Assembly: GCA_964019425.1 (NCBI GenBank)
Contig: OZ025805.1
Coordinates: 744,001 to 808,000 of the forward strand
Direction of reading: 5' to 3'
From: Flectonema sp. DT1601
Lineage: Eukaryota
DNA length: 64,000 nucleotides
Shown: in pieces, positions 1-55,330 of the stretch
How positions within the stretch are numbered: the first letter of the stretch is position 1
How the letters are laid out: each line of letters begins with the position of its first letter
Translations under genes and position numbers: made by a program
The notes under the pieces: model-generated
What the model saw: only the letters and a program-made list of their open reading frames with translations
What the model was told of the DNA's origin: nothing
The model's database searches: none

Positions 1-792
1 CGTTACTTCCCACTTTATCGAAATTCACCGTGTGTGGAACTGGCAGGTTTTTAAAAAATTTGCGTGGAGTTGGCAAGTTTTTTGAAAGTTTACGTGTGGA
101 GCTGGCAGGTTTTTAAAAAATTGCGTGGAGTTGACAGGTTTTTTGAAACTTTGTGTGTGGGCTGACGAATTTTGCAAACTTTGCGTGTGGAGTTGGCAGG
201 TTTTTTGAAACTTTGTGTGTGGAACTGGCAGGTTTTTAAAAAATTTGCGTGGAGTTGGCAAGTTTTTTGAAAGTTTGCGTGTGGAGCTGGCAGGTTTTTA
301 AAAAAATTGTGTGTGGGCTGACGAATTTTGCAAACTTTGCGTGTGGAGCTGGCACGTTTTTAAAAAATTTGCGTGGAGTTGAGGTTTTTTGAAACTTTGC
401 GTGTGGGCTGACGAATTTTGCAAACTTTGCGTGTGGAGCTGGCACGTTTTTAAAAAAATTGCGTGGAGTTGGCAGGTTTTTTGAAACTTTGTGTGTGGAG
501 CTAGCAAGTTTTTAAAAAATTTGCGTGGAATTGACAGGTTTTTTGAAACTTTGCGTGTGGGCTGACGAATTTTGCAAACTTTGCGTGTGGAGCTGGCAGG
601 TTTTTAAAAAATTTGCGTGGAGTTGGCAGGTTTTTTGAAACTTTGTGTGTGGGCCGACGAATTTTGCAAACTTTGCGTGTGGAGCTGGCAGGTTTTCGAA
701 AAAATTGCGTGGAGTTGGCAAGTTTTTTAAAACTTTGTGTGTGGGCTGACGAATTTTGCAAACTTTGCGTGTGGAGTTGGCAGGTTTTTTGA

Positions 793-1003
793 TTTTTTTT
801 TTTTTCATGTTTGATTATTTCCTCTTAATTCTGTTCGTTTCTTTGAAACGAAAATTCATTTGAATATTATTACTTGGTCAGCAACCATCATTGTCGCCCT
901 TTGGGCCTGTTAAAAAAAATAAAAAATAAAAAGAAAGTTTACATCGGGAATAGGGCAGGAGCCAAAAGCTCCCAGTCCGTTACTTCCCACTTTATCGAAA
1001 TTC
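793..1003 (+). mobile_element. 211 bp 3'-tip fragment with a 63 bp internal deletion (short form)
   Basis: Same as the long form but joined across a ctctt microhomology (atttcctctt|aattc). Also at 3319-3529, 4313-4523 and 8115-8325. Confidence 0.93.
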
Positions 1004-2278
1004 ACCGTGTGTGGAACTGGCAGGTTTTTAAAAAATTTGCGTGGAGTTGGCAAGTTTTTTGAAAGTTTACGTGTGGAGCTGGCAGGTTTTTAAAAAATTT
1101 GCATGGAGTTGGCAGGTTTTTTGAAACTTTGTGTGTGGGCCGACGAATTTTGCAAACTTTGCGTGTGGAGCTGGCAGGTTTTTAAAAATTTGCGTGGAGT
1201 TGTCAGGTTTTTTGAAACTTTGCGTGTGGGCTGACGAATGTTGCAAACTTTGCGTGTGGAGCTGGCAAAATTTGCGTGGAATTGGCAAGTTTTTCGAAAG
1301 TTTGTGTGTGGAATTGGCAGGTTTTTAAAAAAATTGCGTGGAGTTGGCAGGTTTTTTAAAACTTTGTGTGGGCTGACGAATTTTGCAAACTTTGCGTGTA
1401 GATGGCAGGTTTTGCAAAATTTGCATGGAGTTGGCAGGTTTTTTGAAACTTTGTGTGTGGAACTGGCAGGTTTTTAAAAAATTTGCGTTGAGTTGACAGG
1501 TTTTTTGAAACTTTGTGTGTGGGCTGACGAATGTTGCAAACTTTGTGTGTGGAGCTGGCAGGTTTTTAAAAACTTTGCGTGTGGAGCTGGCAGGTTTTTA
1601 AAAAAATTGCGTGGAGTTGACAGGTTTTTTGAAACTTTGTGTGTGGGCTGACGAATTTTGCAAACTTTGCGTGTGGAGTTGGCAGGTTTTTTGAAACTTT
1701 GTGTGTGGAACTGGCAGGTTTTTAAAAAATTTGCGTGGAGTTGGCAAGTTTTTTGAAAGTTTGCGTGTGGAGCTGGCAGGTTTTTAAAAAAATTGTGTGT
1801 GGGCTGACGAATTTTGCAAACTTTGCGTGTGGAGCTGGCACGTTTTTAAAAAATTTGCGTGGAGTTGAGGTTTTTTGAAACTTTGCGTGTGGGCTGACGA
1901 ATTTTGCAAACTTTGCGTGTGGAGCTGGCACGTTTTTAAAAAAATTGCGTGGAGTTGGCAGGTTTTTTGAAACTTTGTGTGTGGAGCTAGCAAGTTTTTA
2001 AAAAATTTGCGTGGAATTGACAGGTTTTTTGAAACTTTGCGTGTGGGCTGACGAATTTTGCAAACTTTGCGTGTGGAGCTGGCAGGTTTTTAAAAATTTT
2101 GCGTGGAGTTGGCAGGTTTTTTGAAACTTTGTGTGTGGGCCGACGAATTTTGCAAACTTTGCGTGTGGAGCTGGCAGGTTTTCGAAAAAATTGCGTGGAG
2201 TTGGCAAGTTTTTTAAAACTTTGTGTGTGGGCTGACGAATTTTGCAAACTTTGCGTGTGGAGTTGGCAGGTTTTTTGA

Positions 2279-2328
2279 TTTTTTTTTTTTTCATGTTTGA
2301 TTATTTCCTCTTCATATTTTTTTTTTTC

Positions 2329-2360
<32 letters not shown>

Positions 2361-2552
2361 CTCTGCCTCTCTCTTAATTCTGTTCGTTTCTTTGAAACGA
2401 AAATTCATTTGAATATTATTACTTGGTCAGCAACCATCATTGTCGCCCTTTGGGCCTGTTAAAAAAAATAAAAAATAAAAAGAAAGTTTACATCGGGAAT
2501 AGGGCAGGAGCCAAAAGCTCCCAGTCCGTTACTTCCCACTTTATCGAAATTC
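2279..2552 (+). mobile_element. 274 bp 3'-terminal fragment of the retrotransposon embedded in the satellite HOR (representative long form)
   Basis: Matches the element 3' end (~17172-17443) ending ...ttatcgaaattc. Other long copies: 5526-5799, 7075-7348, 18661-18850 (interrupted), 30417-30690, 31718-31991, 33113-33386, 43722-43995, 45271-45543, 46819-47092, 48400-48673, 49949-50222, 51498-51771, 53109-53382; partial copy at 1-26. Confidence 0.95.
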
Positions 2553-7156: not shown

Positions 7157-9332
7157 CTCTGCCTCTCTCTTAATTCTGTTCGTTTCTTTGAAACGAAAAT
7201 TCATTTGAATATTATTACTTGGTCAGCAACCATCATTGTCGCCCTTTGGGCCTGTTAAAAAAAATAAAAAATAAAAAGAAAGTTTACATCGGGAATAGGG
7301 CAGGAGCCAAAAGCTCCCAGTCCGTTACTTCCCACTTTATCGAAATTCACCGTGTGTGGAACTGGCAGGTTTTTAAAAAATTTGCGTGGAGTTGGCAAGT
7401 TTTTTGAAAGTTTACGTGTGGAGCTGGCAGGTTTTTAAAAAATTGCGTGGAGTTGACAGGTTTTTTGAAACTTTGTGTGTGGGCTGACGAATTTTGCAAA
7501 CTTTGCGTGTGGAGTTGGCAGGTTTTTTGAAACTTTGTGTGTGGAACTGGCAGGTTTTTAAAAAATTTGCGTGGAGTTGGCAAGTTTTTTGAAAGTTTGC
7601 GTGTGGAGCTGGCAGGTTTTTAAAAAAATTGTGTGTGGGCTGACGAATTTTGCAAACTTTGCGTGTGGAGCTGGCACGTTTTTAAAAAATTTGCGTGGAG
7701 TTGAGGTTTTTTGAAACTTTGCGTGTGGGCTGACGAATTTTGCAAACTTTGCGTGTGGAGCTGGCACGTTTTTAAAAAAATTGCGTGGAGTTGGCAGGTT
7801 TTTTGAAACTTTGTGTGTGGAGCTAGCAAGTTTTTAAAAAATTTGCGTGGAATTGACAGGTTTTTTGAAACTTTGCGTGTGGGCTGACGAATTTTGCAAA
7901 CTTTGCGTGTGGAGCTGGCAGGTTTTTAAAAAATTTGCGTGGAGTTGGCAGGTTTTTTGAAACTTTGTGTGTGGGCCGACGAATTTTGCAAACTTTGCGT
8001 GTGGAGCTGGCAGGTTTTCGAAAAAATTGCGTGGAGTTGGCAAGTTTTTTAAAACTTTGTGTGTGGGCTGACGAATTTTGCAAACTTTGCGTGTGGAGTT
8101 GGCAGGTTTTTTGATTTTTTTTTTTTTCATGTTTGATTATTTCCTCTTAATTCTGTTCGTTTCTTTGAAACGAAAATTCATTTGAATATTATTACTTGGT
8201 CAGCAACCATCATTGTCGCCCTTTGGGCCTGTTAAAAAAAATAAAAAATAAAAAGAAAGTTTACATCGGGAATAGGGCAGGAGCCAAAAGCTCCCAGTCC
8301 GTTACTTCCCACTTTATCGAAATTCACCGTGTGTGGAACTGGCAGGTTTTTAAAAAATTTGCGTGGAGTTGGCAAGTTTTTTGAAAGTTTACGTGTGGAG
8401 CTGGCAGGTTTTTAAAAAATTTGCATGGAGTTGGCAGGTTTTTTGAAACTTTGTGTGTGGGCCGACGAATTTTGCAAACTTTGCGTGTGGAGCTGGCAGG
8501 TTTTTAAAAATTTGCGTGGAGTTGTCAGGTTTTTTGAAACTTTGCGTGTGGGCTGACGAATGTTGCAAACTTTGCGTGTGGAGCTGGCAAAATTTGCGTG
8601 GAATTGGCAAGTTTTTCGAAAGTTTGTGTGTGGAATTGGCAGGTTTTTAAAAAAATTGCGTGGAGTTGGCAGGTTTTTTAAAACTTTGTGTGGGCTGACG
8701 AATTTTGCAAACTTTGCGTGTAGATGGCAGGTTTTGCAAAATTTGCATGGAGTTGGCAGGTTTTTTGAAACTTTGTGTGTGGAACTGGCAGGTTTTTAAA
8801 AAATTTGCGTTGAGTTGACAGGTTTTTTGAAACTTTGTGTGTGGGCTGACGAATGTTGCAAACTTTGTGTGTGGAGCTGGCAGGTTTTTAAAAACTTTGC
8901 GTGTGGAGCTGGCAGGTTTTTAAAAAAATTGCGTGGAGTTGACAGGTTTTTTGAAACTTTGTGTGTGGGCTGACGAATTTTGCAAACTTTGCGTGTGGAG
9001 TTGGCAGGTTTTTTGAAACTTTGTGTGTGGAACTGGCAGGTTTTTAAAAAATTTGCGTGGAGTTGGCAAGTTTTTTGAAAGTTTGCGTGTGGAGCTGGCA
9101 GGTTTTTAAAAAAATTGTGTGTGGGCTGACGAATTTTGCAAACTTTGCGTGTGGAGCTGGCACGTTTTTAAAAAATTTGCGTGGAGTTGAGGTTTTTTGA
9201 AACTTTGCGTGTGGGCTGACGAATTTTGCAAACTTTGCGTGTGGAGCTGGCACGTTTTTAAAAAAATTGCGTGGAGTTGGCAGGTATTTTGAAACTTTGT
9301 GTGTGGAGCTAGCAAGTTTTTAAAAAATTTGC

Positions 9333-12300
9333 GTGGAATTGACAGGTTTTTTGATTTTCGTTCCTTATAACTCTACAACACCCACTTTTACCCCGTTACA
9401 CCCGTCTCGTCTCAAATTCCGATCTTTTGGAACTAAATGGAAGGACATCGACGTTTCTGCTGCAGAAAAACTTCAAACTTTCACCGTCGAAACAGAAAAC
9501 TCTTCAAAACCTGCCGACCAACTTGATAAACTACTCAAAACGGTTTATCAAATATGTAGCGGTTTCTTTGAAGAAACAAAGCGGAATTTACCCCGCAAAC
9601 AGAAATCAAGGGAAGAGGTCATCCTCGACCAAGAAAAACTTGAATGTCGTCTGGAAATGAAACAGCTAAGACAGGAGCTCCGCAAATCCGGGCCTTCTAT
9701 AGAGAACGCTGTCAAATGGAAAGAGGCAAGAACGAGAATGAAAAGGATTTTCCGAATGTATCGGAATTTAGAAAAGAAAAATTTATTCAAAAAATTACAA
9801 GATAAATTTCGTCAAAATCCGTTTACTGCCATAAAAGAAGAACTCCAAAAAGAAGATCCTCAACCCCCCTCCCTTGATATTCCAGAGGAAAAAATAATTG
9901 AACATTTTAAAAACAATTATTGTGACAATGAAAAAAAAAAAACTGATTTCACCCATCCCTCTTTTTTACCTAAGTCTGACTACAAGACAATGGATGATAT
10001 CCAGTTCCCGAGCTTCGAACAGTTTGGTATTCTCTTATCAAAGAAAAAAAACAAATGTGCCCCTGGTCCCAATTGCATACCTTATGTTGTATGGAAAAAG
10101 GTCCCAACTTTTATGGAAGCACTTTACAAGGTATTAAAGAGAATTTTCGAACTCAAGGCCTATCCGGATAGTTGGGGCTTAGCATTTGTAACAATGCTCC
10201 CAAAGCCCAACTCCGATGGGAAAGACATCTCGAAAACGAGACCGATAGCTGTGGGCAACTGCGACGGGAAAATTTTTAATACGGTTATTCAGGAAGCCGT
10301 CGCAAACCACACTCTTTCTAAATTTAATTTTCAAAAAGGCTTTAGGAAAGGTGTCTCTGGGTGTATCGAACATGCCACGATCACCTCAGAGATTTTTAAA
10401 GAAGTGAAAGCTCTCCGGAAAAACCTAACAATTGTCTGGGTGGATTTGGCAGATGCTTTCGGCTCAGTCAAACATCAATTAATTTTCTTTGCTTTAAAAT
10501 ATTTCGGAATTCACGAAAGAATAATCGGTTTCTATAAAAGGTATTATTCCTCCATGCGCGTCCAAATCAGAGTTGGAGAAGGCCTGACGCCCACTATCCC
10601 TTTTGAAGTTGGTGTCTTTCAAGGCTGCGTTTCCTCCCCAACCCTTTTTAATTTGGTATTCCAACTACTGCTCTTTTCCTTAGCAGTTCATCAACAGGAA
10701 GCCTACGAGTTTAACAATAAATCCCTCCAACTATTAGTTGCAGCTTTTGCTGATGATTTACAACTTACCACGTCATCAAAGGCGGGGGCAAAATTGCTAA
10801 TCAAGTCGCTCGAACAGTTTCTTTCCTGGTCTCGTGGTATGAAAGCGAAACCCCAGAAATGCATTGCCCACAGCTTTGTACAAGGGAAACCAGCTAACCC
10901 GGACCTGAAGATTAACAATGTTCCGATTACGAATCTCCAGGAAGCTGGAGAGTTCAAATACCTCGGGCGTTGGTTTGAGCCGAACGCCAAAGAACAGAAA
11001 TTACGAGAGCGCCTGACCACTTTTACCAGGAATTTTTTAAAAAAAGTCGACGCCATGCCACTATATGGGTCTCAGAAGGCTTGGTCTGTCCAACACTTGT
11101 TATTGTCAAGGTTAACATGGAGTTTAATGATCCATGACTTATCTCTCCCTTTTGCCAAAAAAATGGACAAAATTATTAAACCTTTTTTGAAGAAATGGTG
11201 GGGATTTGTCCGCTCTGCGAACACAGTCATCCTTTTTACCGGTTCAAAGAACACTGTTGGTCTCAGACACAAAAGAGTTGAGACGCTATATAAACAAGCG
11301 CAATCAATTAAACTAGACATCCTCAGATCCTCACAAGACTCTGACATGCACGGTGTCTACAATGTTATTATGGAGAAATCGTCCAACTGGTCGAAAAAGT
11401 TTTCAGCTTCTGCTGAGTGGGAGCGCCTTATTAAGTTTTTTTCTTACCGTTCTCTTGCGAAGCAATCAGCTGGTCTTGGTCACCGATTGCGCGATCTACG
11501 TACTACTCGCCCCGATCTCCTTAAGCGTTTTGAAGTGGAAGCCACAGATGAACTACTGAACTCTTTGAATAAATTACAAGTCCAAGGTCAGTGGAAGGAG
11601 TGGTCTAAATGTATGATAAACGACTTCACCTGGAATAAGGTACTTAGGGAGGGAAATCCTGCCTATATCTCATTTCAACTGAAAGCGGTTACAAACACCC
11701 TCCCCTCACAAGATAATTTAAAGAGGTGGAACATCACCAATGTGGACCAAAATTGTGTTTTGTGTGGCAAAGTGAATCCTACCCTCAGGCATGTCTTAAC
11801 AGGCTGTCCTGTCTCTTTAACACAAGGGAGGTTCACGTGGCGTCACGACAGCGTTCTAAAACGCATTGTTATCTTCTTGGAAGAGTTGATAATAAAAGCC
11901 AACAAAAGAAAAGAAAACCTCCCGCCTCCCTCTCAAACTTTTTTAAAAACAGGGGAAAATAAACCCCTAGAAAGAATTTCTAAAGAGACAGGCGAACTTT
12001 CACTAGCGAATGATTGGGTCATCCTCGACGATGTCGGTGATAACCGCCTAATTGTTCCTCTTGAAGTGTGCCATGTCTCGTCCTCTCTAAGACCAGACAT
12101 TTTTATTTATTCTTTTTTTGCGAAAAGAGCACTGATTCTGGAGCTGACGTGTCCAAATGAAGATCGTTTCGAAACCTCTCATGTCTTAAAGGAAAAGAAA
12201 TACCTAAAGCTAAGAGACTCGATCATCGCTAATGGCTTCGACTGTAACATTTTTACTATTGAAGTTGGCGTACGAGGAAACATCTGCATGGACCAGCTGA

Positions 12301-14117
12301 ACATCTGGACACGTCACATCGGTTCACCTTTAGCACCAACAAAAGCTTTATTTTGTGAATGCACCAGAATCGCCAGACAGTGCTCATATGTTCTGTTCCA
12401 GACGAGGAACCTCCCCACGTGGCATTCAAGACCACTAATGCGCAGCATTAAAGAAGAACCTGCCACTGCAAGTTTTATAAAAGATGGTAAAGAAATCTTC
12501 CCTGTGGAAGAAGTCAAAATCCACAAAGTAACAAAACTGAAAACGATCGAAAAGCTCACCATTGAAAGATCGTGGCTTGAGAAATGTTTTATCTGGCAAA
12601 CTTGTTACGCATCGGCTCTTTCTATTCTACTTATTGCCAATGGTTCTTCCTCCCCGGCCCCTTCTGTTTTGTTAGATGAGGATGAGCTCACTGGACTCTC
12701 CTTGTCATTCTCTTCTATTTCTTCCATCTCTTTCCAGACTCCCCCACCTGAACTCATGTCAACGGGATCGCAAACACTTCTTACTGATTTTGCTATGGTG
12801 ATAAGAACTCAATCTGACATGGGTTCTCAAACCCCCTTGTACAAAAAAAAAGAAGGAAAATTAAGGCTGAAACTTTCCTTGAAATGCCAGATTTTAGAAA
12901 ACGAATTAGAGCAAATGAAAGAACGAATTTTTTATGTTCTATTTTTATTTTACTTTAATGCGATGTCAGCCTCCCTCGAGAAAGACAAGCAGTTACTAAA
13001 TGGATTACCTGTTGAGATCAAAGCTACCAATCAGGATCCATCCTCACTTCCTCCTGCGCCCCCTGTTTTAATTATTGAAAAAGATAGAAAAGAATATGAA
13101 CTTCTGGAAGGAGTAATTCAACGGTTAACAGCAGAACGCGATGAATCGAAGACTTCTCTTTCTGCACTAGTTCGACAATATGACTTAGTGGAAGATTACA
13201 GGAAACGTGAGCTCGCAAATCTGACTCAGAGAGCAGACCTATCGGAAATGGCGCTCTTTAATTACCATCAAAGGTTTGTTCTTCTGTCGAACGAATTGGA
13301 GACCAAATGTAATGAGGAAAGAGAAAGTAAAATAAGACTTTTCTATACTCAACAGGAGGTCGAGAGTTTGCGTGCCGCGCGTCCCCGCATGACCCACTTT
13401 AGTCAACAAGTTTCCCCCCGAACCCCCGTTTTGTATGAATCTGTTGCTATGATGAAGATAGCAAAGAACTACCTCTCGCTCTTTACAACTACGAGTAGTC
13501 TTTTTACTCCTCTTATTAAACCCCTTATCCCTACCCTTAATTATATCACCCCTCTTTGTCCTCTAGCCTCAATTCCTCCGACAATGCCGCGGAGTGAAGC
13601 TCTCGACCGCACGCCGACCAAGATTTTACGACAAGAGAGTCACGTTATCTCCGTTAAAGAGAATACACCTATTGCGAGACAATGGTCCGAGGGTAGGATT
13701 GACTTACTCGAGAATTACTGTCGAGCAGTAGATGACTCTCTCGAAACAAACGAGAAAGCGGCAGAGCTCTCAGAACAACTTTTGGATGCCCAACTTCGCC
13801 TCTCGGAGCTGAATCACCAACGGTGTACAACTCACGCAGAGCAGCTTGAGCAATCCATGATGTTAACGGGACTGGCGAGCGATTTAAATGCTCAACTCGC
13901 CTTGGCACGGTCTCAAATTGCGGCCCTGAAGTTCCAATTAGCTTCATGGGCAGAAGGTTTGAGTCCGCCAGACACAGAAGAACATGAGGAAAATGAAACT
14001 CCGCCGAGAAAGTCTGAGCGTTCAACTCTGAAAAAACGGACCCCTCCATCAAGATATCGTTACAATCGAAGGAGATGTTCTGCTGATGACGTTCACGGTG
14101 ACTCCACCCCCTTGTAA
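9333..14117 (+). CDS. RT-CCHC-RLE polyprotein with long C-terminal extension; N-terminal zinc fingers lost by 5' truncation
   Basis: RT motifs APGPN, RPIAV, QKGF, DLADAFGSV, GVFQGCVSSPTLFN, FADD and FKYLG; knuckle CVLC..HVLTGC; RFTWRHD; RLE motif RPDI..ELTCP..KEKKY..EVGVRG. The first 8 codons are satellite/junction-derived, so element-derived frame starts at ~9357 and the first ATG is at 9657. Confidence 0.93.
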   Translation: MELTGFLIFVPYNSTTPTFTPLHPSRLKFRSFGTKWKDIDVSAAEKLQTFTVETENSSKPADQLDKLLKTVYQICSGFFEETKRNLPRKQKSREEVILDQEKLECRLEMKQLRQELRKSGPSIENAVKWKEARTRMKRIFRMYRNLEKKNLFKKLQDKFRQNPFTAIKEELQKEDPQPPSLDIPEEKIIEHFKNNYCDNEKKKTDFTHPSFLPKSDYKTMDDIQFPSFEQFGILLSKKKNKCAPGPNCIPYVVWKKVPTFMEALYKVLKRIFELKAYPDSWGLAFVTMLPKPNSDGKDISKTRPIAVGNCDGKIFNTVIQEAVANHTLSKFNFQKGFRKGVSGCIEHATITSEIFKEVKALRKNLTIVWVDLADAFGSVKHQLIFFALKYFGIHERIIGFYKRYYSSMRVQIRVGEGLTPTIPFEVGVFQGCVSSPTLFNLVFQLLLFSLAVHQQEAYEFNNKSLQLLVAAFADDLQLTTSSKAGAKLLIKSLEQFLSWSRGMKAKPQKCIAHSFVQGKPANPDLKINNVPITNLQEAGEFKYLGRWFEPNAKEQKLRERLTTFTRNFLKKVDAMPLYGSQKAWSVQHLLLSRLTWSLMIHDLSLPFAKKMDKIIKPFLKKWWGFVRSANTVILFTGSKNTVGLRHKRVETLYKQAQSIKLDILRSSQDSDMHGVYNVIMEKSSNWSKKFSASAEWERLIKFFSYRSLAKQSAGLGHRLRDLRTTRPDLLKRFEVEATDELLNSLNKLQVQGQWKEWSKCMINDFTWNKVLREGNPAYISFQLKAVTNTLPSQDNLKRWNITNVDQNCVLCGKVNPTLRHVLTGCPVSLTQGRFTWRHDSVLKRIVIFLEELIIKANKRKENLPPPSQTFLKTGENKPLERISKETGELSLANDWVILDDVGDNRLIVPLEVCHVSSSLRPDIFIYSFFAKRALILELTCPNEDRFETSHVLKEKKYLKLRDSIIANGFDCNIFTIEVGVRGNICMDQLNIWTRHIGSPLAPTKALFCECTRIARQCSYVLFQTRNLPTWHSRPLMRSIKEEPATASFIKDGKEIFPVEEVKIHKVTKLKTIEKLTIERSWLEKCFIWQTCYASALSILLIANGSSSPAPSVLLDEDELTGLSLSFSSISSISFQTPPPELMSTGSQTLLTDFAMVIRTQSDMGSQTPLYKKKEGKLRLKLSLKCQILENELEQMKERIFYVLFLFYFNAMSASLEKDKQLLNGLPVEIKATNQDPSSLPPAPPVLIIEKDRKEYELLEGVIQRLTAERDESKTSLSALVRQYDLVEDYRKRELANLTQRADLSEMALFNYHQRFVLLSNELETKCNEERESKIRLFYTQQEVESLRAARPRMTHFSQQVSPRTPVLYESVAMMKIAKNYLSLFTTTSSLFTPLIKPLIPTLNYITPLCPLASIPPTMPRSEALDRTPTKILRQESHVISVKENTPIARQWSEGRIDLLENYCRAVDDSLETNEKAAELSEQLLDAQLRLSELNHQRCTTHAEQLEQSMMLTGLASDLNAQLALARSQIAALKFQLASWAEGLSPPDTEEHEENETPPRKSERSTLKKRTPPSRYRYNRRRCSADDVHGDSTPL

Positions 14118-14289
14118 TTCTCTTTTTCCTTACTTTCACATCATTTTGTTTATTTAGTTTTTTTAGCTTATTTATTATTTATTGTTCGTTTTTGTTTGTA
14201 TTATTTTATCGATATGTTTATGTCCGTCAGATCATAACGTTAATCAGGTTAATTGTTAATTGTTAATTATAAATGGTCTAAACCCCAAT

Positions 14290-14535
14290 CCAAGTTCCCA
14301 AGGCTTGGCATAGATTTGAGTGACGCCTTACTGGCCTCCTCATCCTCTATGAGTGGTGAGGGGGCCAGCAATGGTTTTTTTTTTTTTTTTTTCTCTTATT
14401 TCTTTTTTTCTTTTTCTTTTACTCTAATATGAAATATTTTTGAACAAAATGTGATTATTAATTTAAAAAAAAAAAAAAAAATAAATAATGTAAATGAATA
14501 ATAAAAAAAAAAAAAAAAAAATTATGCCTTGGGAA
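14290..14535 (+). other. Putative structured RNA element at start of the 3' UTR
   Basis: Hairpin ctggcctcctca...tgagggggccag (14331-14368); ttcccaaggc (14295-14304) is the exact reverse complement of gccttgggaa (14526-14535). Both motifs are retained in the minus copy (~24343-24591). Confidence 0.5.
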
Positions 14536-14616
14536 TACAACCAAAGCCCCAATTAATCGGTCCTTTCTTTTTCCTTCTTGTCAAGTGATCGCTCCACTCG
14601 TCGATCACCAAAACCG

Positions 14617-15023
14617 ATTGTATTTATATCTGTTCTTTTCTCAACGATCGGCTATACCGATCATTTTTTTAAAATAATTGTTTTCTTCTTCTCGACGATC
14701 AGATCAAATTGATCGACCTTTTTTTTTTTTTTTTTTTCCTTTATTCCTTCCATCCCTCCCGCTCCCCTAATTTTAAATAAAAACAAGATCAGCTCAGCTT
14801 GATCGTTAATCTTTTTTTTCTTTTTTAATTTAAACTGATTGTATTTATATCTGTTTATTTTTCTCAACGATCGGCTATACCGATCAACCTTTAAAATAAT
14901 TTCTTCTTCTCGACGATCAGATCCAATTGATCAACCTTTTCTTTTTTTTTCCTCTATTCCTTCCATCCCTCCCGCTCCCCTATTTGTAATAAAAACAAGA
15001 TCAGCTCAGCTTGATCGTTAATT
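14617..15023 (+). repeat. Two diverged ~190 bp direct repeats in the retroelement 3' UTR
   Basis: gattgtatttatatctg...gatcagctcagcttgatcgttaat at ~14617 and ~14837. Also present in copy A' (+25061) and in the minus copy (~23840-24260). Confidence 0.85.
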
Positions 15024-15344
15024 TTTTTTCTTTCTTTTTTGTTGGTCCTAGTCAGGACCTTAAACTGACTAACCGGTCTTAATTTAAATAAGTGTTAACC
15101 TAGTTTCTCTTTTCCTTTTCATTTTCCTTTTAATACTCTCTATCTGGTCTGTTATGTCATATTTCTCAATTAATTTTATCATCCATTTTACTTTTCACTG
15201 TTTCCCATCTACATTTTATTTTCAAATAGTTACGGTCTGTTAAAAAAAAAAAAAGTTTAAATAAGTTAAATCGAACATGTTAACTCAATTCCTCAATTCT
15301 TCCGTCATGGTCATGACATTCTTTTTCGTTTTTCTAATGCACAA

Positions 15345-15439
15345 GAGATACCATCACTCATGAGATACCAACGCACATACGAGATACCAGCACTCCAGAG
15401 ATACCGACACGCTAGAGATACCAAGTCACTTGAGATACC
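15345..15439 (+). repeat. GAGATACC x6 mini-array with 9-11 nt variable spacers
   Basis: Motif starts at 15345, 15362, 15381, 15398, 15415 and 15432. Equivalent arrays at 40406-40500 and, inverted, at 23452-23546. Confidence 0.9.
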
Positions 15440-15689
15440 TCCTTGTAAATTAATTCCCGGTATTTCAAATTTGAATTGATAGTGTCAACTCTGCTTGCTG
15501 CTCTTGTTCATGTGTTGTCTCCTGAAAGTGATCTTAACTCCTATAAAAAGAAAAAAAAAAAAAAAGAAATCAAAAAAGAAGAATTTTCAAACGAAGTTAT
15601 AACAACCCCTACCACCCATTATGATCAATTCCGCTTGTTTTTTTTTTTTTTTTAAAAACAAATAAAACAAATAAAAAAAAAAAATTATA

Positions 15690-18710: not shown

Positions 18711-18742
<32 letters not shown>

Positions 18743-18850
18743 CTCTGCCTCTCTCTTAATTCTGTTCGTTTCTTTGAAACGAAAATTCATTTGAATATTA
18801 TTACTTGGTCAGCAACCATCATTGTCGCCCTTTGGGCCTGTTAAAAAAAA
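17444..18850. repeat. Satellite block 2 (one HOR unit; its 3'-tip fragment is cut by the minus-strand insertion)
   Basis: Same monomers; the tip fragment runs 18661-18850 and stops at gggcctgttaaaaaaaa. Confidence 0.95.
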
Positions 18851-19043: not shown

Positions 19044-19074
<31 letters not shown>

Positions 19075-24384: not shown

Positions 24385-24419
<35 letters not shown>

Positions 24420-30466: not shown

Positions 30467-30498
<32 letters not shown>

Positions 30499-42100: not shown

Positions 42101-42504
42101 AAAAAGAGCATCTCCCTGCTATCCCTCATATCCCCACAATAATATTATACCTTTTCATTTTCTCTTTCCTTTTCTGGTCTTTATTTTTTTTTTTTCCTTT
42201 TTCATACAACGTTTTTTTATTTATATATTTTTTTTTTTTTTTTTTCATGTTTGATTATTTCCTCTTCATATTTTTTTTCTTTTTTCTTTTCTTTCTTTTT
42301 TTTCTTTTTTTTCTCTGCCTCTCTCTTAATTCTGTTCGTTTCTTTGAAACGAAAATTCATTTGAATATTATTCCTTGGTCAGCAACCATCATTGTCGCCC
42401 TTTGGGCCTGTTAAAAAAAATAAAAAATAAAAAGAAAGTTTACATCGGGAATAGGGCAGGAGCCAAAAGCTCCCAGTCCGTTACTTCCCACTTTATCGAA
42501 ATTC
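34416..42504 (+). mobile_element. 5'-truncated retrotransposon copy A' (duplicate of copy A)
   Basis: Same truncation and 3' junctions as copy A; every ORF-track landmark is offset by exactly 25,061 bp. Confidence 0.95.
40751..42056 (+). repeat. 3' UTR palindromic array of copy A' (10 units)
   Basis: Matches 15690-16995 shifted by 25,061. Confidence 0.9.
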
Positions 42505-43771
42505 AAAGTTTACGTGTGGAGCTGGCAGGTTTTTAAAAAATTTGCATGGAGTTGGCAGGTTTTTTGAAACTTTGTGTGTGGGCCGACGAATTTTGCAAAC
42601 TTTGCGTGTGGAGCTGGCAGGTTTTTAAAAATTTGCGTGGAGTTGTCAGGTTTTTTGAAACTTTGCGTGTGGGCTGACGAATGTTGCAAACTTTGCGTGT
42701 GGAGCTGGCAAAATTTGCGTGGAATTGGCAAGTTTTTCGAAAGTTTGTGTGTGGAATTGGCAGGTTTTTAAAAAAATTGCGTGGAGTTGGCAGGTTTTTT
42801 AAAACTTTGTGTGGGCTGACGAATTTTGCAAACTTTGCGTGTAGATGGCAGGTTTTGCAAAATTTGCATGGAGTTGGCAGGTTTTTTGAAACTTTGTGTG
42901 TGGAACTGGCAGGTTTTTAAAAAATTTGCGTTGAGTTGACAGGTTTTTTGAAACTTTGTGTGTGGGCTGACGAATGTTGCAAACTTTGTGTGTGGAGCTG
43001 GCAGGTTTTTAAAAACTTTGCGTGTGGAGCTGGCAGGTTTTTAAAAAAATTGCGTGGAGTTGACAGGTTTTTTGAAACTTTGTGTGTGGGCTGACGAATT
43101 TTGCAAACTTTGCGTGTGGAGTTGGCAGGTTTTTTGAAACTTTGTGTGTGGAACTGGCAGGTTTTTAAAAAATTTGCGTGGAGTTGGCAAGTTTTTTGAA
43201 AGTTTGCGTGTGGAGCTGGCAGGTTTTTAAAAAAATTGTGTGTGGGCTGACGAATTTTGCAAACTTTGCGTGTGGAGCTGGCACGTTTTTAAAAAATTTG
43301 CGTGGAGTTGAGGTTTTTTGAAACTTTGCGTGTGGGCTGACGAATTTTGCAAACTTTGCGTGTGGAGCTGGCACGTTTTTAAAAAAATTGCGTGGAGTTG
43401 GCAGGTTTTTTGAAACTTTGTGTGTGGAGCTAGCAAGTTTTTAAAAAATTTGCGTGGAATTGACAGGTTTTTTGAAACTTTGCGTGTGGGCTGACGAATT
43501 TTGCAAACTTTGCGTGTGGAGCTGGCAGGTTTTTAAAAATTTTGCGTGGAGTTGGCAGGTTTTTTGAAACTTTGTGTGTGGGCCGACGAATTTTGCAAAC
43601 TTTGCGTGTGGAGCTGGCAGGTTTTCGAAAAAATTGCGTGGAGTTGGCAAGTTTTTTAAAACTTTGTGTGTGGGCTGACGAATTTTGCAAACTTTGCGTG
43701 TGGAGTTGGCAGGTTTTTTGATTTTTTTTTTTTTCATGTTTGATTATTTCCTCTTCATATTTTTATTTTTC

Positions 43772-43803
<32 letters not shown>

Positions 43804-45320
43804 CTCTGCCTCTCTCTTAATTCTGTTCGTTTCTTTGAAACGAAAATTCATTTGAATATTATTACTTGGTCAGCAACCATCATTGTCGCCCTTTGGGCCT
43901 GTTAAAAAAAATAAAAAATAAAAAGAAAGTTTACATCGGGAATAGGGCAGGAGCCAAAAGCTCCCAGTCCGTTACTTCCCACTTTATCGAAATTCACCGT
44001 GTGTGGAACTGGCAGGTTTTTAAAAAATTTGCGTGGAGTTGGCAAGTTTTTTGAAAGTTTACGTGTGGAGCTGGCAGGTTTTTAAAAAATTTGCATGGAG
44101 TTGGCAGGTTTTTTGAAACTTTGTGTGTGGGCCGACGAATTTTGCAAACTTTGCGTGTGGAGCTGGCAGGTTTTTAAAAATTTGCGTGGAGTTGTCAGGT
44201 TTTTTGAAACTTTGCGTGTGGGCTGACGAATGTTGCAAACTTTGCGTGTGGAGCTGGCAAAATTTGCGTGGAATTGGCAAGTTTTTCGAAAGTTTGTGTG
44301 TGGAATTGGCAGGTTTTTAAAAAAATTGCGTGGAGTTGGCAGGTTTTTTAAAACTTTGTGTGGGCTGACGAATTTTGCAAACTTTGCGTGTAGATGGCAG
44401 GTTTTGCAAAATTTGCATGGAGTTGGCAGGTTTTTTGAAACTTTGTGTGTGGAACTGGCAGGTTTTTAAAAAATTTGCGTTGAGTTGACAGGTTTTTTGA
44501 AACTTTGTGTGTGGGCTGACGAATGTTGCAAACTTTGTGTGTGGAGCTGGCAGGTTTTTAAAAACTTTGCGTGTGGAGCTGGCAGGTTTTTAAAAAAATT
44601 GCGTGGAGTTGACAGGTTTTTTGAAACTTTGTGTGTGGGCTGACGAATTTTGCAAACTTTGCGTGTGGAGTTGGCAGGTTTTTTGAAACTTTGTGTGTGG
44701 AACTGGCAGGTTTTTAAAAAATTTGCGTGGAGTTGGCAAGTTTTTTGAAAGTTTGCGTGTGGAGCTGGCAGGTTTTTAAAAAAATTGTGTGTGGGCTGAC
44801 GAATTTTGCAAACTTTGCGTGTGGAGCTGGCACGTTTTTAAAAAATTTGCGTGGAGTTGAGGTTTTTTGAAACTTTGCGTGTGGGCTGACGAATTTTGCA
44901 AACTTTGCGTGTGGAGCTGGCACGTTTTTAAAAAAATTGCGTGGAGTTGGCAGGTTTTTTGAAACTTTGTGTGTGGAGCTAGCAAGTTTTTAAAAAATTT
45001 GCGTGGAATTGACAGGTTTTTTGAAACTTTGCGTGTGGGCTGACGAATTTTGCAAACTTTGCGTGTGGAGCTGGCAGGTTTTTAAAAATTTTGCGTGGAG
45101 TTGGCAGGTTTTTTGAAACTTTGTGTGTGGGCCGACGAATTTTGCAAACTTTGCGTGTGGAGCTGGCAGGTTTTCGAAAAAATTGCGTGGAGTTGGCAAG
45201 TTTTTTAAAACTTTGTGTGTGGGCTGACGAATTTTGCAAACTTTGCGTGTGGAGTTGGCAGGTTTTTTGATTTTTTTTTTTTTCATGTTTGATTATTTCC
45301 TCTTCATATTTTTTTTTTTC

Positions 45321-45351: not shown

Positions 45352-46868
45352 CTCTGCCTCTCTCTTAATTCTGTTCGTTTCTTTGAAACGAAAATTCATT
45401 TGAATATTATTACTTGGTCAGCAACCATCATTGTCGCCCTTTGGGCCTGTTAAAAAAAATAAAAAATAAAAAGAAAGTTTACATCGGGAATAGGGCAGGA
45501 GCCAAAAGCTCCCAGTCCGTTACTTCCCACTTTATCGAAATTCACCGTGTGTGGAACTGGCAGGTTTTTAAAAAATTTGCGTGGAGTTGGCAAGTTTTTT
45601 GAAAGTTTACGTGTGGAGCTGGCAGGTTTTTAAAAAATTTGCATGGAGTTGGCAGGTTTTTTGAAACTTTGTGTGTGGGCCGACGAATTTTGCAAACTTT
45701 GCGTGTGGAGCTGGCAGGTTTTTAAAAATTTGCGTGGAGTTGTCAGGTTTTTTGAAACTTTGCGTGTGGGCTGACGAATGTTGCAAACTTTGCGTGTGGA
45801 GCTGGCAAAATTTGCGTGGAATTGGCAAGTTTTTCGAAAGTTTGTGTGTGGAATTGGCAGGTTTTTAAAAAAATTGCGTGGAGTTGGCAGGTTTTTTAAA
45901 ACTTTGTGTGGGCTGACGAATTTTGCAAACTTTGCGTGTAGATGGCAGGTTTTGCAAAATTTGCATGGAGTTGGCAGGTTTTTTGAAACTTTGTGTGTGG
46001 AACTGGCAGGTTTTTAAAAAATTTGCGTTGAGTTGACAGGTTTTTTGAAACTTTGTGTGTGGGCTGACGAATGTTGCAAACTTTGTGTGTGGAGCTGGCA
46101 GGTTTTTAAAAACTTTGCGTGTGGAGCTGGCAGGTTTTTAAAAAAATTGCGTGGAGTTGACAGGTTTTTTGAAACTTTGTGTGTGGGCTGACGAATTTTG
46201 CAAACTTTGCGTGTGGAGTTGGCAGGTTTTTTGAAACTTTGTGTGTGGAACTGGCAGGTTTTTAAAAAATTTGCGTGGAGTTGGCAAGTTTTTTGAAAGT
46301 TTGCGTGTGGAGCTGGCAGGTTTTTAAAAAAATTGTGTGTGGGCTGACGAATTTTGCAAACTTTGCGTGTGGAGCTGGCACGTTTTTAAAAAATTTGCGT
46401 GGAGTTGAGGTTTTTTGAAACTTTGCGTGTGGGCTGACGAATTTTGCAAACTTTGCGTGTGGAGCTGGCACGTTTTTAAAAAAATTGCGTGGAGTTGGCA
46501 GGTTTTTTGAAACTTTGTGTGTGGAGCTAGCAAGTTTTTAAAAAATTTGCGTGGAATTGACAGGTTTTTTGAAACTTTGCGTGTGGGCTGACGAATTTTG
46601 CAAACTTTGCGTGTGGAGCTGGCAGGTTTTTAAAAATTTTGCGTGGAGTTGGCAGGTTTTTTGAAACTTTGTGTGTGGGCCGACGAATTTTGCAAACTTT
46701 GCGTGTGGAGCTGGCAGGTTTTCGAAAAAATTGCGTGGAGTTGGCAAGTTTTTTAAAACTTTGTGTGTGGGCTGACGAATTTTGCAAACTTTGCGTGTGG
46801 AGTTGGCAGGTTTTTTGATTTTTTTTTTTTTCATGTTTGATTATTTCCTCTTCATATTTTTTTTTTTC

Positions 46869-46900
<32 letters not shown>

Positions 46901-48449
46901 CTCTGCCTCTCTCTTAATTCTGTTCGTTTCTTTGAAACGAAAATTCATTTGAATATTATTACTTGGTCAGCAACCATCATTGTCGCCCTTTGGGCCTGTT
47001 AAAAAAAATAAAAAATAAAAAGAAAGTTTACATCGGGAATAGGGCAGGAGCCAAAAGCTCCCAGTCCGTTACTTCCCACTTTATCGAAATTCACCGTGTG
47101 TGGAACTGGCAGGTTTTTAAAAAATTTGCGTGGAGTTGGCAAGTTTTTTGAAAGTTTACGTGTGGAGCTGGCAGGTTTTTAAAAAATTTGCATGGAGTTG
47201 GCAGGTTTTTTGAAACTTTGTGTGTGGGCCGACGAATTTTGCAAACTTTGCGTGTGGAGCTGGCAGGTTTTTAAAAATTTGCGTGGAGTTGTCAGGTTTT
47301 TTGAAACTTTGCGTGTGGGCTGACGAATGTTGCAAACTTTGCGTGTGGAGCTGGCAAAATTTGCGTGGAATTGGCAAGTTTTTCGAAAGTTTGTGTGTGG
47401 AATTGGCAGGTTTTTAAAAAAATTGCGTGGAGTTGGCAGGTTTTTTAAAACTTTGTGTGGGCTGACGAATTTTGCAAACTTTGCGTGTAGATGGCAGGTT
47501 TTGCAAAATTTGCATGGAGTTGGCAGGTTTTTTGAAACTTTGTGTGTGGAACTGGCAGGTTTTTAAAAAATTTGCGTTGAGTTGACAGGTTTTTTGAAAC
47601 TTTGTGTGTGGGCTGACGAATGTTGCAAACTTTGTGTGTGGAGCTGGCAGGTTTTTAAAAACTTTGCGTGTGGAGCTGGCAGGTTTTTAAAAAAATTGCG
47701 TGGAGTTGACAGGTTTTTTGAAACTTTGTGTGTGGGCTGACGAATTTTGCAAACTTTGCGTGTGGAGTTGGCAGGTTTTTTGAAACTTTGTGTGTGGAAC
47801 TGGCAGGTTTTTAAAAAATTTGCGTGGAGTTGGCAAGTTTTTTGAAAGTTTGCGTGTGGAGCTGGCAGGTTTTTAAAAAAATTGTGTGTGGGCTGACGAA
47901 TTTTGCAAACTTTGCGTGTGGAGCTGGCACGTTTTTAAAAAAATTGCGTGGAGTTGGCAGGTTTTTTGAAACTTTGTGTGTGGAGCTAGCAAGTTTTTAA
48001 AAAATTTGCGTGGAGTTGAGGTTTTTTGAAACTTTGCGTGTGGGCTGACGAATTTTGCAAACTTTGCGTGTGGAGCTGGCACGTTTTTAAAAAAATTGCG
48101 TGGAGTTGGCAGGTTTTTTGAAACTTTGTGTGTGGAGCTAGCAAGTTTTTAAAAAATTTGCGTGGAATTGACAGGTTTTTTGAAACTTTGCGTGTGGAGC
48201 TGGCAGGTTTTTAAAAATTTTGCGTGGAGTTGGCAGGTTTTTTGAAACTTTGTGTGTGGGCCGACGAATTTTGCAAACTTTGCGTGTGGAGCTGGCAGGT
48301 TTTCGAAAAAATTGCGTGGAGTTGGCAAGTTTTTTAAAACTTTGTGTGTGGGCTGACGAATTTTGCAAACTTTGCGTGTGGAGTTGGCAGGTTTTTTGAT
48401 TTTTTTTTTTTTCATGTTTGATTATTTCCTCTTCATATTTTTTTTTTTC

Positions 48450-49998: not shown

Positions 49999-50030
<32 letters not shown>

Positions 50031-51547: not shown

Positions 51548-51579
<32 letters not shown>

Positions 51580-53158: not shown

Positions 53159-53190
<32 letters not shown>

Positions 53191-55330
53191 CTCTGCCTCT
53201 CTCTTAATTCTGTTCGTTTCTTTGAAACGAAAATTCATTTGAATATTATTACTTGGTCAGCAACCATCATTGTCGCCCTTTGGGCCTGTTAAAAAAAATA
53301 AAAAATAAAAAGAAAGTTTACATCGGGAATAGGGCAGGAGCCAAAAGCTCCCAGTCCGTTACTTCCCACTTTATCGAAATTCACCGTGTGTGGAACTGGC
53401 AGGTTTTTAAAAAATTTGCGTGGAGTTGGCAAGTTTTTTGAAAGTTTACGTGTGGAGCTGGCAGGTTTTTAAAAAATTTGCATGGAGTTGGCAGGTTTTT
53501 TGAAACTTTGTGTGTGGGCCGACGAATTTTGCAAACTTTGCGTGTGGAGCTGGCAGGTTTTTAAAAATTTGCGTGGAGTTGTCAGGTTTTTTGAAACTTT
53601 GCGTGTGGGCTGACGAATGTTGCAAACTTTGCGTGTGGAGCTGGCACGTTTTTAAAAAATTTGCGTGGAGTTGGCAGGTTTTTTGAAACTTTGTGTGGGC
53701 CGACGAATTTTGCAAACTTTGCGTGTGGAGCTGGCAGGTTTTTAAAAATTTGCGTGGAGTTGTCAGGTTTTTTGAAACTTTGCGTGTGGGCTGACGAATG
53801 TTGCAAACTTTGCGTGTGGAGCTGGCAAAATTTGCGTGGAATTGGCAAGTTTTTCGAAAGTTTGTGTGTGGAATTGGCAGGTTTTTAAAAAAATTGCGTG
53901 GAGTTGGCAGGTTTTTTAAAACTTTGTGTGGGCTGACGAATTTTGCAAACTTTGCGTGTAGATGGCAGGTTTTGCAAAATTTGCATGGAGTTGGCAGGTT
54001 TTTTGAAACTTTGTGTGTGGGCCGACGAATTTTGCAAACTTTGCGTGTGGAGCTGGCAGGTTTTGCAAAATTTGCATGGAGTTGGCAGGTTTTTTGAAAC
54101 TTTGTGTGTGGAACTGGCAGGTTTTTAAAAAATTTGCGTTGAGTTGACAGGTTTTTTGAAACTTTGTGTGTGGGCTGACGAATGTTGCAAACTTTGTGTG
54201 TGGAGCTGGCAGGTTTTTAAAAACTTTGCGTGTGGAGCTGGCAGGTTTTTAAAAAAATTGCGTGGAGTTGACAGGTTTTTTGAAACTTTGTGTGTGGGCT
54301 GACGAATTTTGCAAACTTTGCGTGTGGAGTTGGCAGGTTTTTTGAAACTTTGTGTGTGGAACTGGCAGGTTTTTAAAAAATTTGCGTGGAGTTGGCAAGT
54401 TTTTTGAAAGTTTGCGTGTGGAGCTGGCAGGTTTTTAAAAAAATTGTGTGTGGGCTGACGAATTTTGCAAACTTTGCGTGTGGAGCTGGCAGGTTTTGCA
54501 AAATTTGCATGGAGTTGGCAGGTTTTTTGAAACTTTGTGTGTGGAGCTGGCAGGTTTTGAAAAAATTGCGTGGAGTTGACAGGTTTTTTGAAACTTTGCG
54601 TGTGGAGCTGGCAGGTTTTAAAAAAATTGCGTGGAGTTGACAGGTTTTTTGAAACTTTGCGTGTGGAGTTGGCAGGTTTTTCGAAACTTTGTGTGTGGAG
54701 CTGGCAAGTTTTTAAAAAAATTGCGTGGAGTTGACAGGTTTTTTGAAACTTTGCGTGTGGGCTGACGAATTTTGCAAACTTTGCGTGTGGAGCTGGCAGG
54801 TTTTTAAAAATTTGCGTGGAGTTGGCAGGTTTTTTGAAACTTTGTGTGTGGGCCGACGAATTTTGCAAACTTTGCGTGTAGATGGCAGGTTTTGCAAAAT
54901 TTGCATGGAGTTGGCAAGTTTTTTGAAAGTTTGCTTGTTGAGCTGACGAATTTTGCAAACTTTGCTTGTGGAGCTGGCAGGTTTTGCAAAATTTGCGTGG
55001 AGTTGGCAGGTTTTTTGAAAGTTTGCGTGTGGAGCTGGCAGGTTTTTAAAAAAATTGTGTGTGGGCTGACGAATTTTGCAAACTTTGCGTGTGGAGCTGG
55101 CAGGTTTTGCAAAATTTGCATGGAGTTGGCAGGTTTTTTGAAACTTTGTGTGTGGAGCTGGCAGGTTTTTAAAAAATTTGCGTAGAGTTGACAGGTTTTT
55201 TGAAACTTTGTGTGTGGGCTGACGAATGTTGCAAACTTTGCGTGTGGAGCTGGCAGGTTTTTTGATACTTTGTGTGTAGAGCTGGCAGGTTTTTAAAATT
55301 TTGTGGAGCTGGCAGTTTTTTCAAACTTGG
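42505..55330. repeat. Satellite block 4: regular ~1549 bp HOR, then tip-free degenerating edge
   Basis: Tip spacings 1548, 1549, 1581, 1549, 1549 and 1611. No tip after 53382; monomers decay by ~55260-55330. Confidence 0.97.

Follow-up and report, generated by a model that had tools for sequence, protein, structure and literature searches.

Zepp of Coccomyxa forms one cluster per chromosome (PMC3446292), and ZeppL of Chlamydomonas is bound by CENH3 (10.1101/2025.03.28.645958). As in these clusters of green algae, young LINE copies are nested in one another in the window studied here, a stretch of 64,000 nucleotides on contig OZ025805.1 of Flectonema sp. DT1601. ZeppL is an L1-class LINE and itself the main repeat, whereas here an RLE element and the higher-order repeat (HOR) of a 30-bp satellite share the region. 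Cnl1 of Cryptococcus is presumably of the RLE/CRE type. It also occurs in nested arrays of full-length and 5'-truncated non-LTR copies; as far as PMC9942834 describes it, it is a subtelomeric element of 3.4 kb, with neither a satellite HOR nor a long tail.

R9 of Adineta vaga is rDNA-specific. At the insertions studied here, the duplications are not the same from copy to copy (219 and 971 bp), and as they are set in tandem DNA, they could also be mimicked by unequal recombination. The endonuclease of Drosophila Jockey-3 is of the APE type, unlike the RLE here. G2/Jockey-3 is comparable in that it, too, is a LINE that has recently inserted into a region associated with satellite DNA, and its preference for CENP-A chromatin has been shown, as reported in PMC11575011. 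Transposon-satellite mosaics of a similar kind are already published: in the Porphyrio LINE in bPorHoc1.190, the Athila arrays of Rosa and maize CRM1TR/CRM4TR, one insertion or sub-sequence is described as copied by recombination with identical flanks (10.64898/2026.09.17.752431; PMC3648361). Unlike in these cases, the copied piece here comes from an RLE LINE and is a 274-bp 3' tip that forms a fixed component of every HOR unit. The element resembles the HERO-like RLE elements (R2 group) in that one ORF encodes zinc fingers at the N terminus, an RT, a CCHC knuckle and an RLE. It differs from them by its tail of 560 aa, of which two versions occur, and by a 3' UTR of 3-6 kb with internal tandem repeats.

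The satellite array and its 3' tips

Matches to the satellite core number 492 on the plus strand and 0 on the minus strand, with the G-rich strand oriented toward the flank that has no satellite. ORFs on the minus strand were rejected as genes, as they are translations of the repeat. The HOR unit of 1,549 bp comprises about 42 monomers (1272 bp) and 277 bp of tip and junction. Among 15 uninterrupted tip-to-tip intervals, five measure 1549 bp, three 977 bp and one 1548 bp; the others, one each, are 994, 1276, 1301, 1395, 1581 and 1611 bp long. The length variants change by whole monomers. Any two of the five 1549-bp units differ at just 0-2 bases, hence the periodicity is far beyond chance. As monomers inside a single HOR share a mean identity of only 77%, the array has the two levels of divergence that define a HOR. 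Its final 1.9 kb is without tips and holds rarer monomer variants.

Table 1 Features of the window (positions on the forward strand)
Feature	Position	Strand	Remarks
Satellite array	34..55325	+	~30-bp G/T-skewed monomers, broken up by element copies
Complete HOR unit, example	45547..47095	+	1549 bp, monomers then tip; identical to units at 1007, 5803, 50226
274-bp tip, example	2279..2552	+	
Tip starts, 211-bp deletion form	793, 3319, 4313, 8115		
Tip start, tip broken by E2	18661		
Remaining tip starts	5526, 7075, 30417, 31718, 33113, 43722, 45271, 46819, 48400, 49949, 51498, 53109		
E1	9356..17443	+	5'-truncated RLE LINE, start corresponds to E2 nt 731; tail type 1
E2	18851..30387	-	longest copy, 11,537 bp; inverted, within HOR tip; tail type 2
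E3	34417..42504	+	inside second copy of 10.7-kb block
10.7-kb block, second copy	33205..43911	+	repeats 8144-18850 at +25061, one mismatch, flanking satellite included
Satellite stretch duplicated around E1	8384..9354 and 17444-18414	+	971 bp; mismatches: 1 at E1, 0 at E3
Stretch duplicated around E2	18632..18850 and 30388-30606	+	219 bp, monomer end and tip start; 1 mismatch
E2 open frame	24899..30193	-	1764 codons; first Met ~aa 280
E2 C-terminal tail, type 2	24902..26581	-	560 aa, downstream of RLE
E1 C-terminal tail, type 1	12432..14114	+	
TIR-bounded element, likely DNA transposon	56696..59370	.	in flank; second copy from 60391

The array contains 19 tips, of which 18 have their 5' end inside the window and one is cut at bases 1-26. 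Twelve of the 18 are 274 bp long, one is 273 bp, four are 211 bp and one is broken by E2. These counts and the modal interval agree with the initial annotation, which had reported about 19 tips of 274/211 bp with a modal period of 1549 bp. It had also regarded the HOR as built from a retrotransposon 3' tip. The tips are indeed the 3' end of the element, which supplied the punctuation of the HOR, but tip and junction amount to only about 18% of the unit (277/1549 bp). The monomers do not resemble the element significantly (best match 13 nt, E 0.31); hence, a derivation of the satellite from the element was rejected.

The 5' junction is identical in 18/18 tips, and at the intact 3' ends of the HOR the same satellite sequence comes next in 18/18. 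Independent insertions of the tips were rejected because the junctions are identical throughout, which points to one insertion that was passively amplified. As one tip was amplified, the tips and long copies share their orientation in 21 of 22 cases. All 18 tips carry an A at a base where all three long copies have C. The insertion site is also found 18 times in the window in uninterrupted form, as an empty-site look-alike within the same HOR. A 20-nt tip pattern had no match in metagenome_contigs or viral_contigs, and contigs bridging the tip-satellite junction numbered 0 in runs X2, X3 and X4, a count that does not show absence.

Beyond position 55330 of the window, no tips or monomers were found, barring one 27-nt T-run match. 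This part, 8.7 kb long, had been described as a unique flank without element copies. It is free of tips, but it is not unique because it holds a TIR element and a second copy of it, with recurrences elsewhere: the same TIR adjoins element ORFs in 5 of 78 family proteins from other contigs. Positions 55426-55521 are fused to an element ORF elsewhere (P0024, 32/32 aa). ORFs of the flank gave no Pfam match above the cutoff.

Long copies and the encoded protein

The three long copies that had been annotated in the array were found as E1, E2 and E3. However, E1 and E3 lie within one 10.7-kb duplication with one mismatch, which is possibly a misassembly, and are not independent. Three independent long insertions were therefore rejected, and the window records three insertion events. 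All copies end at the same base, show variable 5' truncation and have no LTRs, as non-LTR elements do. The 3' UTR is 3.3 kb long with 10 internal tandem units in E1 and 6.0 kb with 29 units in E2; no ribozyme turned up in an Rfam scan of 14000-31000, whose single match was weak (E 0.097). Synonymous divergence between E1 and E2 over RT-RLE is low (dS 0.014), as for young nested insertions. E1 sits among modern HOR monomers and E2 inside a HOR tip. Hence, the element re-inserted after the HOR had formed, in line with the re-invasion proposed earlier. The long flanking duplications (971 and 219 bp) at both long insertions are unusual.

The E2 protein has two N-terminal Cys/His zinc-finger-like motifs (read by eye), and its single ORF includes a non-LTR RT (PF00078, aa 461-716, E 4e-26). 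The knuckle CX2CX8HX4C at aa 979-996 falls within the spacing CX2-3CX7-8HX4C taken from PMC5678591. RLE motifs are predicted at PD (D1093), E1108 and KxxKY (1124-1128), and these columns are mostly conserved in an alignment with 22 relatives. The RPD...ELT...KxxKY motifs are presumably HERO-like. A Pfam search found no APE family. Judged from its sequence, the element is an RLE-type non-LTR retrotransposon (R2 group) with the predicted domain order ZnF-RT-CCHC-RLE, and R2 proteins are its best matches among solved structures (9nl2, E 2e-33). Close relatives share 30-37% identity and are without clade names; an initial search for homologues had recovered two distant RTs and otherwise just members of the family's own cluster.

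A 560-residue predicted-helical tail after the endonuclease, in two old versions on one RT body, is unusual: 75 of 98 relatives stop within 40 aa of the RLE. The two versions are 49% identical with a dN/dS of ~0.14 on a near-identical RT body. Both are old, and the tail is under purifying selection. Long helices are predicted for the E1 tail with low confidence (model pLDDT 44, pTM 0.20), and Foldseek with this poor model gave 0 matches at E 0.001. For the tail, no Pfam family, no homologue outside the element family and no recognisable chromatin-binding domain were found. It is a selected protein module that may serve in RNP oligomerisation or tethering.

The family on other contigs

The family was sampled as 78 ENA proteins from other contigs, perhaps of more than one assembly, and insertion junctions were read from the predicted proteins. 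Flank counts of this kind are biased toward junctions inside the ORF, and they miss satellite insertions because flanks shorter than about 6 residues cannot be classed. The proteins are spread over at least 55 contigs, told apart by their lengths (10 kb to 1.45 Mb), with at most 3 seen per contig, and the Chao estimate is ~120 contigs with family proteins.

An antisense 3' tip ends 10/78 proteins, at 10 different ORF positions. These antisense self-insertions share no target sequence, with 3/10 resting on a 3-residue match. Two of the 78 proteins begin directly after a sense 3' end, and three begin within another copy's 3' UTR or tip. Insertions thus occur at ten unrelated ORF sites, and others lie in a tip, a UTR or satellite DNA, with either orientation represented; there is no one fixed target as in R2, R4, NeSL, CRE and Utopia. 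By analogy, the locus resembles nested Zepp or Cnl1 clusters rather than an R2-type fixed target. The homing to the satellite proposed in the initial annotation is mostly not supported. In the window, only three insertion events are recorded, and the chance that three events all land in the array is ~0.44 (27.6 kb of satellite and tips vs 8.7 kb of flank); element copies elsewhere, whose flanks were the proposed check, have a satellite-like flank in only 1/78 proteins and varied self-insertion sites instead.

Another copy's 3' end bounds 7 of 46 cluster members, which were not chosen as chimeric (strict count 5), and 9/46 carry a self-nesting junction. The 3'-end-bounded members exceed uniform insertion in 11/12 assumed settings (9/12 with the strict count of 5). 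The test depends on values assumed for genome size and for copy number, and at the extreme setting it fails (P 0.3).

Origin of the array

We favour, with a probability of roughly 0.7, that a high-copy RLE LINE, likely without a fixed target, accumulates in repeat-rich refuges, and that the 274-bp tip, with its identical junctions in 19 units, probably goes back to one truncated insertion which host recombination then multiplied. As a parallel, recombination that multiplies a single insertion within a satellite array is reported in 10.64898/2026.09.17.752431, and HERO is described in PMC4640811 as mostly non-specific. The 30-bp satellite would have been present first. Target-primed reverse transcription would then have aborted after 274 nt with replacement of ~6 target bases, and unequal exchange or conversion would have amplified the tip with ~42 monomers to the 1549-bp HOR. 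The two long insertions would have followed, and the long duplication that flanks each of them may have arisen when the second strand was joined at an equivalent site further along the array; the E1 block would then have been duplicated. The clustering would mostly reflect retention in a gene-free, heterochromatin-like sink, with chromatin-guided insertion possibly helping. Through its readable junctions, the window would show how a LINE insertion that was aborted ends up as a permanent component of a HOR, a route of array turnover which is published but rarely resolved.

Some observations speak against this reading. One monomer motif, with 10 sites per 1272 bp, precedes the 5' junction in both the tip and E1; a coincidence of this kind, spotted post hoc, has a chance of ~0.008. 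The 3' junction of E1 has that register too. This hints at a local cleavage preference. All three events of the window also fell within the array.

It is possible, though unlikely, that the element homes to centromeric (CENH3) chromatin via its C-terminal tail and that the array is a regional centromere. The homogeneous HOR with rarer edge monomers, the young nested insertions and the self-nesting fit centromere patterns as published for Zepp (PMC3446292) and Jockey-3 (PMC11575011). The purifying selection on the tail and its two old versions would suit such a role, and a C-terminal targeting module is described for the Tal1 integrase in 10.64898/2026.09.17.752431. However, at least 55 contigs with family proteins is a high number if each chromosome has one cluster, barring a fragmented or pooled assembly; the unrelated TIR element adjoins the same copies (5/78), as expected of a general sink; and the tail offers no recognisable chromatin-binding domain. 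A bolder form, which we regard as a long shot, is an RLE LINE that homes to centromeric chromatin instead of a DNA sequence via a swappable coiled-coil tail, placed in the slot where relatives carry deubiquitinase/ADP-ribosyltransferase cargo. The two old tail alleles on one homogenised RT would then be reminiscent of an arms race against centromere proteins of the host, and the 3' tip would be fixed in a centromeric HOR. If the tail is a targeting module, R2-group elements can swap sequence for chromatin targeting via an added C-terminal domain, which would bear on centromere invasion and R2-based genome engineering. If it is not, the locus is an ordinary transposon sink that holds a good case study.

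It is improbable that the element built the array up as a subtelomere or chromosome end, in the manner of Cnl1 arrays or of HeT-A/TART in Drosophila. The window begins inside the array and 21/22 tips and long copies are co-oriented, but this orientation stems from the amplification of one tip. The G-rich strand points toward the non-satellite flank, opposite to the usual polarity of a left telomere, and no contig or chromosome end is seen in the window. E2 is inverted, and duplicated target DNA flanks both long insertions, as for internal insertion and not as for telomere retroelements; subtelomeric nested non-LTR arrays as such are known (PMC9942834).

Recognition of the satellite sequence by the RLE and N-terminal zinc fingers, as R2 recognises 28S rDNA, is more doubtful still. 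A satellite preference is known among RLE elements, as reported for YURE and U2-derived satellite in PMC4640811, and two 5' junctions and one 3' junction share a monomer register. However, E2 went into a tip in the opposite orientation, and the ten unrelated ORF sites and the single satellite-like flank on other contigs argue against it. Strict specificity for the satellite sequence is largely refuted.

Spread of the HOR unit as a SINE-like RNA of satellite and 3' tip, copied by the element RT, is the least likely reading. In its favour, the unit ends in the element 3' end, which the RT likely recognises. Against it, unit lengths change by whole monomers, and the 18/18 invariant 3' junctions, as opposed to the varied 3' flanks of true insertions, refute it for the window.

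Composition and age order of the array

The window holds a eukaryotic array of ~30-bp satellite monomers (Table), with 492 core matches on the plus strand and 0 on the minus strand. By monomer decomposition, the modal higher-order repeat (HOR) unit of 1549 bp consists of ~42 monomers (1272 bp) and 277 bp of non-satellite DNA. The uninterrupted tip-to-tip intervals (n = 15) measure 1549 bp in five cases, 1548 bp in one and 977 bp in three; the six other lengths differ by whole monomers. As the five 1549-bp units are 0–2 bases apart pairwise while monomers within a unit are on average ~77% identical, this is a true HOR. Its punctuation is the 3' end ("tip") of a LINE, found 18 times with the 5' end inside the window and once cut at base 1. 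The initial annotation, which described tip punctuation with a modal period of 1549 bp, is thus confirmed (19 tips; 5 of 15 intervals). Its proposal that the HOR was built from the tip holds for the punctuation but not for the monomers, which show no significant similarity to the element in a comparison within the window; hence, the element accounts for only ~18% of the HOR.

The 5' junction is identical in 18/18 tips, the same bases follow 18/18 intact HOR 3' ends, and 18/18 tips carry A where the long copies carry C. An uninterrupted version of the site, ~6 bases of which are replaced by the tip, occurs 18 times in the window. The common junctions, the shared A and the empty site argue for a single insertion copied along with the array. 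The long copies E1 and E3 belong to a single 10.7-kb block, which recurs at +25061 with one mismatch, so that three events remain: tip, E1 and E2. E2 sits in reverse orientation inside a HOR tip and is therefore younger than the HOR. Of the annotated re-invasion by three long copies, the three copies and the re-entry into the array stand, but E1 and E3 represent one duplicated block. Duplications flank both long insertions, 219 bp with 1 mismatch at E2 and 971 bp with 1 mismatch at E1 (0 at E3); in tandem DNA, such duplications cannot be told from unequal recombination. A long duplication is cited for R9 in PMC3636483.

Table. Features of the window
Feature	Position	Strand	Observation
Satellite array	34–55325		~30-bp monomers
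E1	9356–17443	+	5'-truncated, starting at nt 731 of E2
E2	18851–30387	−	11,537 bp; one open frame, 1764 codons
E3	34417–42504	+	5'-truncated, starting at nt 731 of E2
3' UTR repeat, E1	15696–16900	+	10 tandem units; units of 111–146 bp, short inverted repeat
3' UTR repeat, E2	~19400–23130	−	29 such units; alternating lengths give a ~255-bp dimer
E2 stop-codon region	24603–24969		tandemly duplicated, 194 bp
E2 frame before first Met	30193–29360	−	open for ~280 codons; contains both zinc-finger-like motifs
Flank stretch	55426–55521		fused to element ORF on another contig
Minisatellite	55626–55923		63-bp minisatellite inside an open frame
TIR-bounded element	56696–59370		broken, Cys-rich reading frames
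Second copy of TIR-bounded element	from 60391		
ORF	61118–61909	+	263 codons, hydrophobic stretches, no Pfam match
Direct repeat	63651–63715 and 63936–64000		65 bp

Insertion preference and origin of the array

We favour, with a probability of about 0.68, a LINE that would insert without a fixed target and collect in repeat-rich sinks; a single aborted insertion, the tip, would have been amplified into the HOR by host recombination, and two further insertions would have followed.

ENA assemblies contain the family in high copy number, with clusters of 235, 47, 14, 12, 9 and 6 proteins and smaller ones. With three proteins occurring on several contigs left out, 77 tallied proteins come from at least 55 contigs, counted by distinct lengths that sum to 27 Mb (Chao estimate ~120). 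Neighbours were read from gene calls running across junctions, for which 242 proteins yielded 80 past a k-mer filter and 78 after two distant relatives were dropped. An antisense 3' tip ends 10 of the 78, each at a different ORF position and without a target sequence common to them; three of these endings rest on a 3-residue match. Two proteins begin immediately behind a sense 3' end, three begin within the 3' UTR or tip of another copy, five adjoin the TIR element of the window's flank, and in one the 5' flank is satellite-like; several of the flanks fall outside any class. Another copy's 3' end bounds 7/46 non-representative members, more than uniform insertion would give under 11 of the 12 settings assumed (9 of 12 at a strict count of 5). 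Although this route is biased, seeing ORF junctions well and satellite flanks poorly, it does rule out strict sequence specificity. By arithmetic (27.6 kb of satellite and tips versus 8.7 kb of flank), three events would all hit the array with a chance of ~0.44. With this chance, the 10 ORF positions and 1/78 satellite-like flanks, the annotated homing to the satellite is not borne out. One and the same monomer motif precedes the 5' junctions of the tip and of E1 (chance ~0.008, post hoc); a weak local preference at this motif, which would count against our favoured reading, is possible.

Chromatin-guided homing to the centromere through the C-terminal tail would fit both the nesting and the selected tail, and we consider it unlikely, though the foremost alternative. 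Of the annotated claims, satellite homing is unsupported and the centromere-like role is a candidate one. A terminal array and strict targeting of the satellite both fit poorly and are very improbable, the latter slightly more so, and SINE-like spread, fitting equally poorly, is the most improbable.

On a 179-kb contig, a diverged 30-bp satellite variant flanks the N-terminus of P0222, a copy of the E2 type, so further satellite subfamilies exist. P0042, P0053, P0110, P0149, P0169 and P0191 represent related LINE subfamilies (~55–70% identity), some of them on contigs of the same lengths as the main family; P0149 continues into a weak match to a MULE transposase.

The element protein and its tail

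The E2 frame encodes a reverse transcriptase (PF00078, E 4e-26), two zinc-finger-like motifs read by eye, a CX2CX8HX4C knuckle, and RLE (endonuclease) motifs whose columns are largely conserved across 22 aligned relatives. Its best solved-structure matches are R2 proteins. By its motifs, the element is a candidate HERO-like one; no clade name is attached to any of the ten closest relatives inspected. The open stretch before the first Met suggests possible non-AUG initiation or splicing, and Rfam gave no ribozyme match over 14000–31000. The 3' UTR tandem array is an incipient second repeat of element origin. The knuckle spacing was taken from PMC5678591.

The tail comprises 560 residues beyond the RLE. 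It has no Pfam match, is modelled as long helices with low confidence, and matches its own family only (305–972-aa proteins, best 7997 candidates scored). Between E1 and E2, residues 180–1275 are near identical (10 silent and 4 replacement changes), whereas residues 1401–1764 are 49% identical (pS 0.73, pN 0.30) with both frames open; dN/dS in this tail region is ~0.14, a rough value as silent sites are near saturation. Two tail versions, both old and under selection, thus share a single homogenised catalytic body, and this would imply exchange between subfamilies.

Among the 150 relatives listed, 98 are <55% identical and reach the RLE end; 75 of these end ≤40 aa past it and 18 have tails >100 aa. 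Twelve long-tailed relatives, picked by eye, were scanned: nine carry a USP deubiquitinase and one a DarT-family domain; within the clade, the position thus serves as a cargo slot. P0061, P0065, P0075, P0129, P0133, P0140, P0141, P0156 and P0166 are RLE-type LINE proteins from other sources with USP/UCH (PF00443, above cutoff) after the endonuclease; in P0083, the C-terminal domain is a DarT-family ssDNA ADP-ribosyltransferase (PF14487, 89 bits, cutoff 22.5). The literature searched, which excludes Repbase Reports and most subscription journals, contains no evident description of ubiquitin-protease domains in RLE elements.

Known systems, sequencing runs and flank

The structure is real and a variant of a published type; the parts that merit further work are the tail and the long flanking duplications. 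According to PMC4640811, RLE clades are mostly target-specific, HERO for the most part is not, and YURE elements favour a satellite derived from U2; PMC9004415 states an RLE for Hero. Nested LINE clusters are described for Zepp (PMC3446292), Cnl1 (PMC9942834) and, with CENH3, ZeppL (10.1101/2025.03.28.645958). Jockey-3 prefers CENP-A chromatin (PMC11575011), and maize has tandem repeats derived from retrotransposons (PMC3648361). A 325-genome survey reports single insertions copied by recombination within satellite arrays, among them a Porphyrio case of 11 LINE copies; its main text makes no mention of "HERO" (10.64898/2026.09.17.752431). Within the same literature scope, which does not establish absence from print, only unrelated work came up for a HERO–centromere–satellite link.

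Parts of the element occur in seven sequencing runs with seven organism labels. Three of four runs examined (X1, X2 and X3) have low-depth coverage over much of the ORF, and the tail in them is mostly of the E1 type, which suggests a carrier present as a minor organism in samples of others. X1, possibly the source sample, has one contig that spans the 3' junction from tip to satellite with no mismatch (64 bases on one side and 33 on the other; depth 25.6, which does not equal copy number), so the junction exists in short-read contigs; the other three runs gave no bridging contig. The tip in this contig reads C, and the A may be specific to the window's array.

The flank (55330–64000) contains neither element nor monomer, as annotated for the element. 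The annotation of this flank as unique does not stand: it contains a TIR-bounded element with a second copy, and a stretch fused to the element ORF elsewhere.
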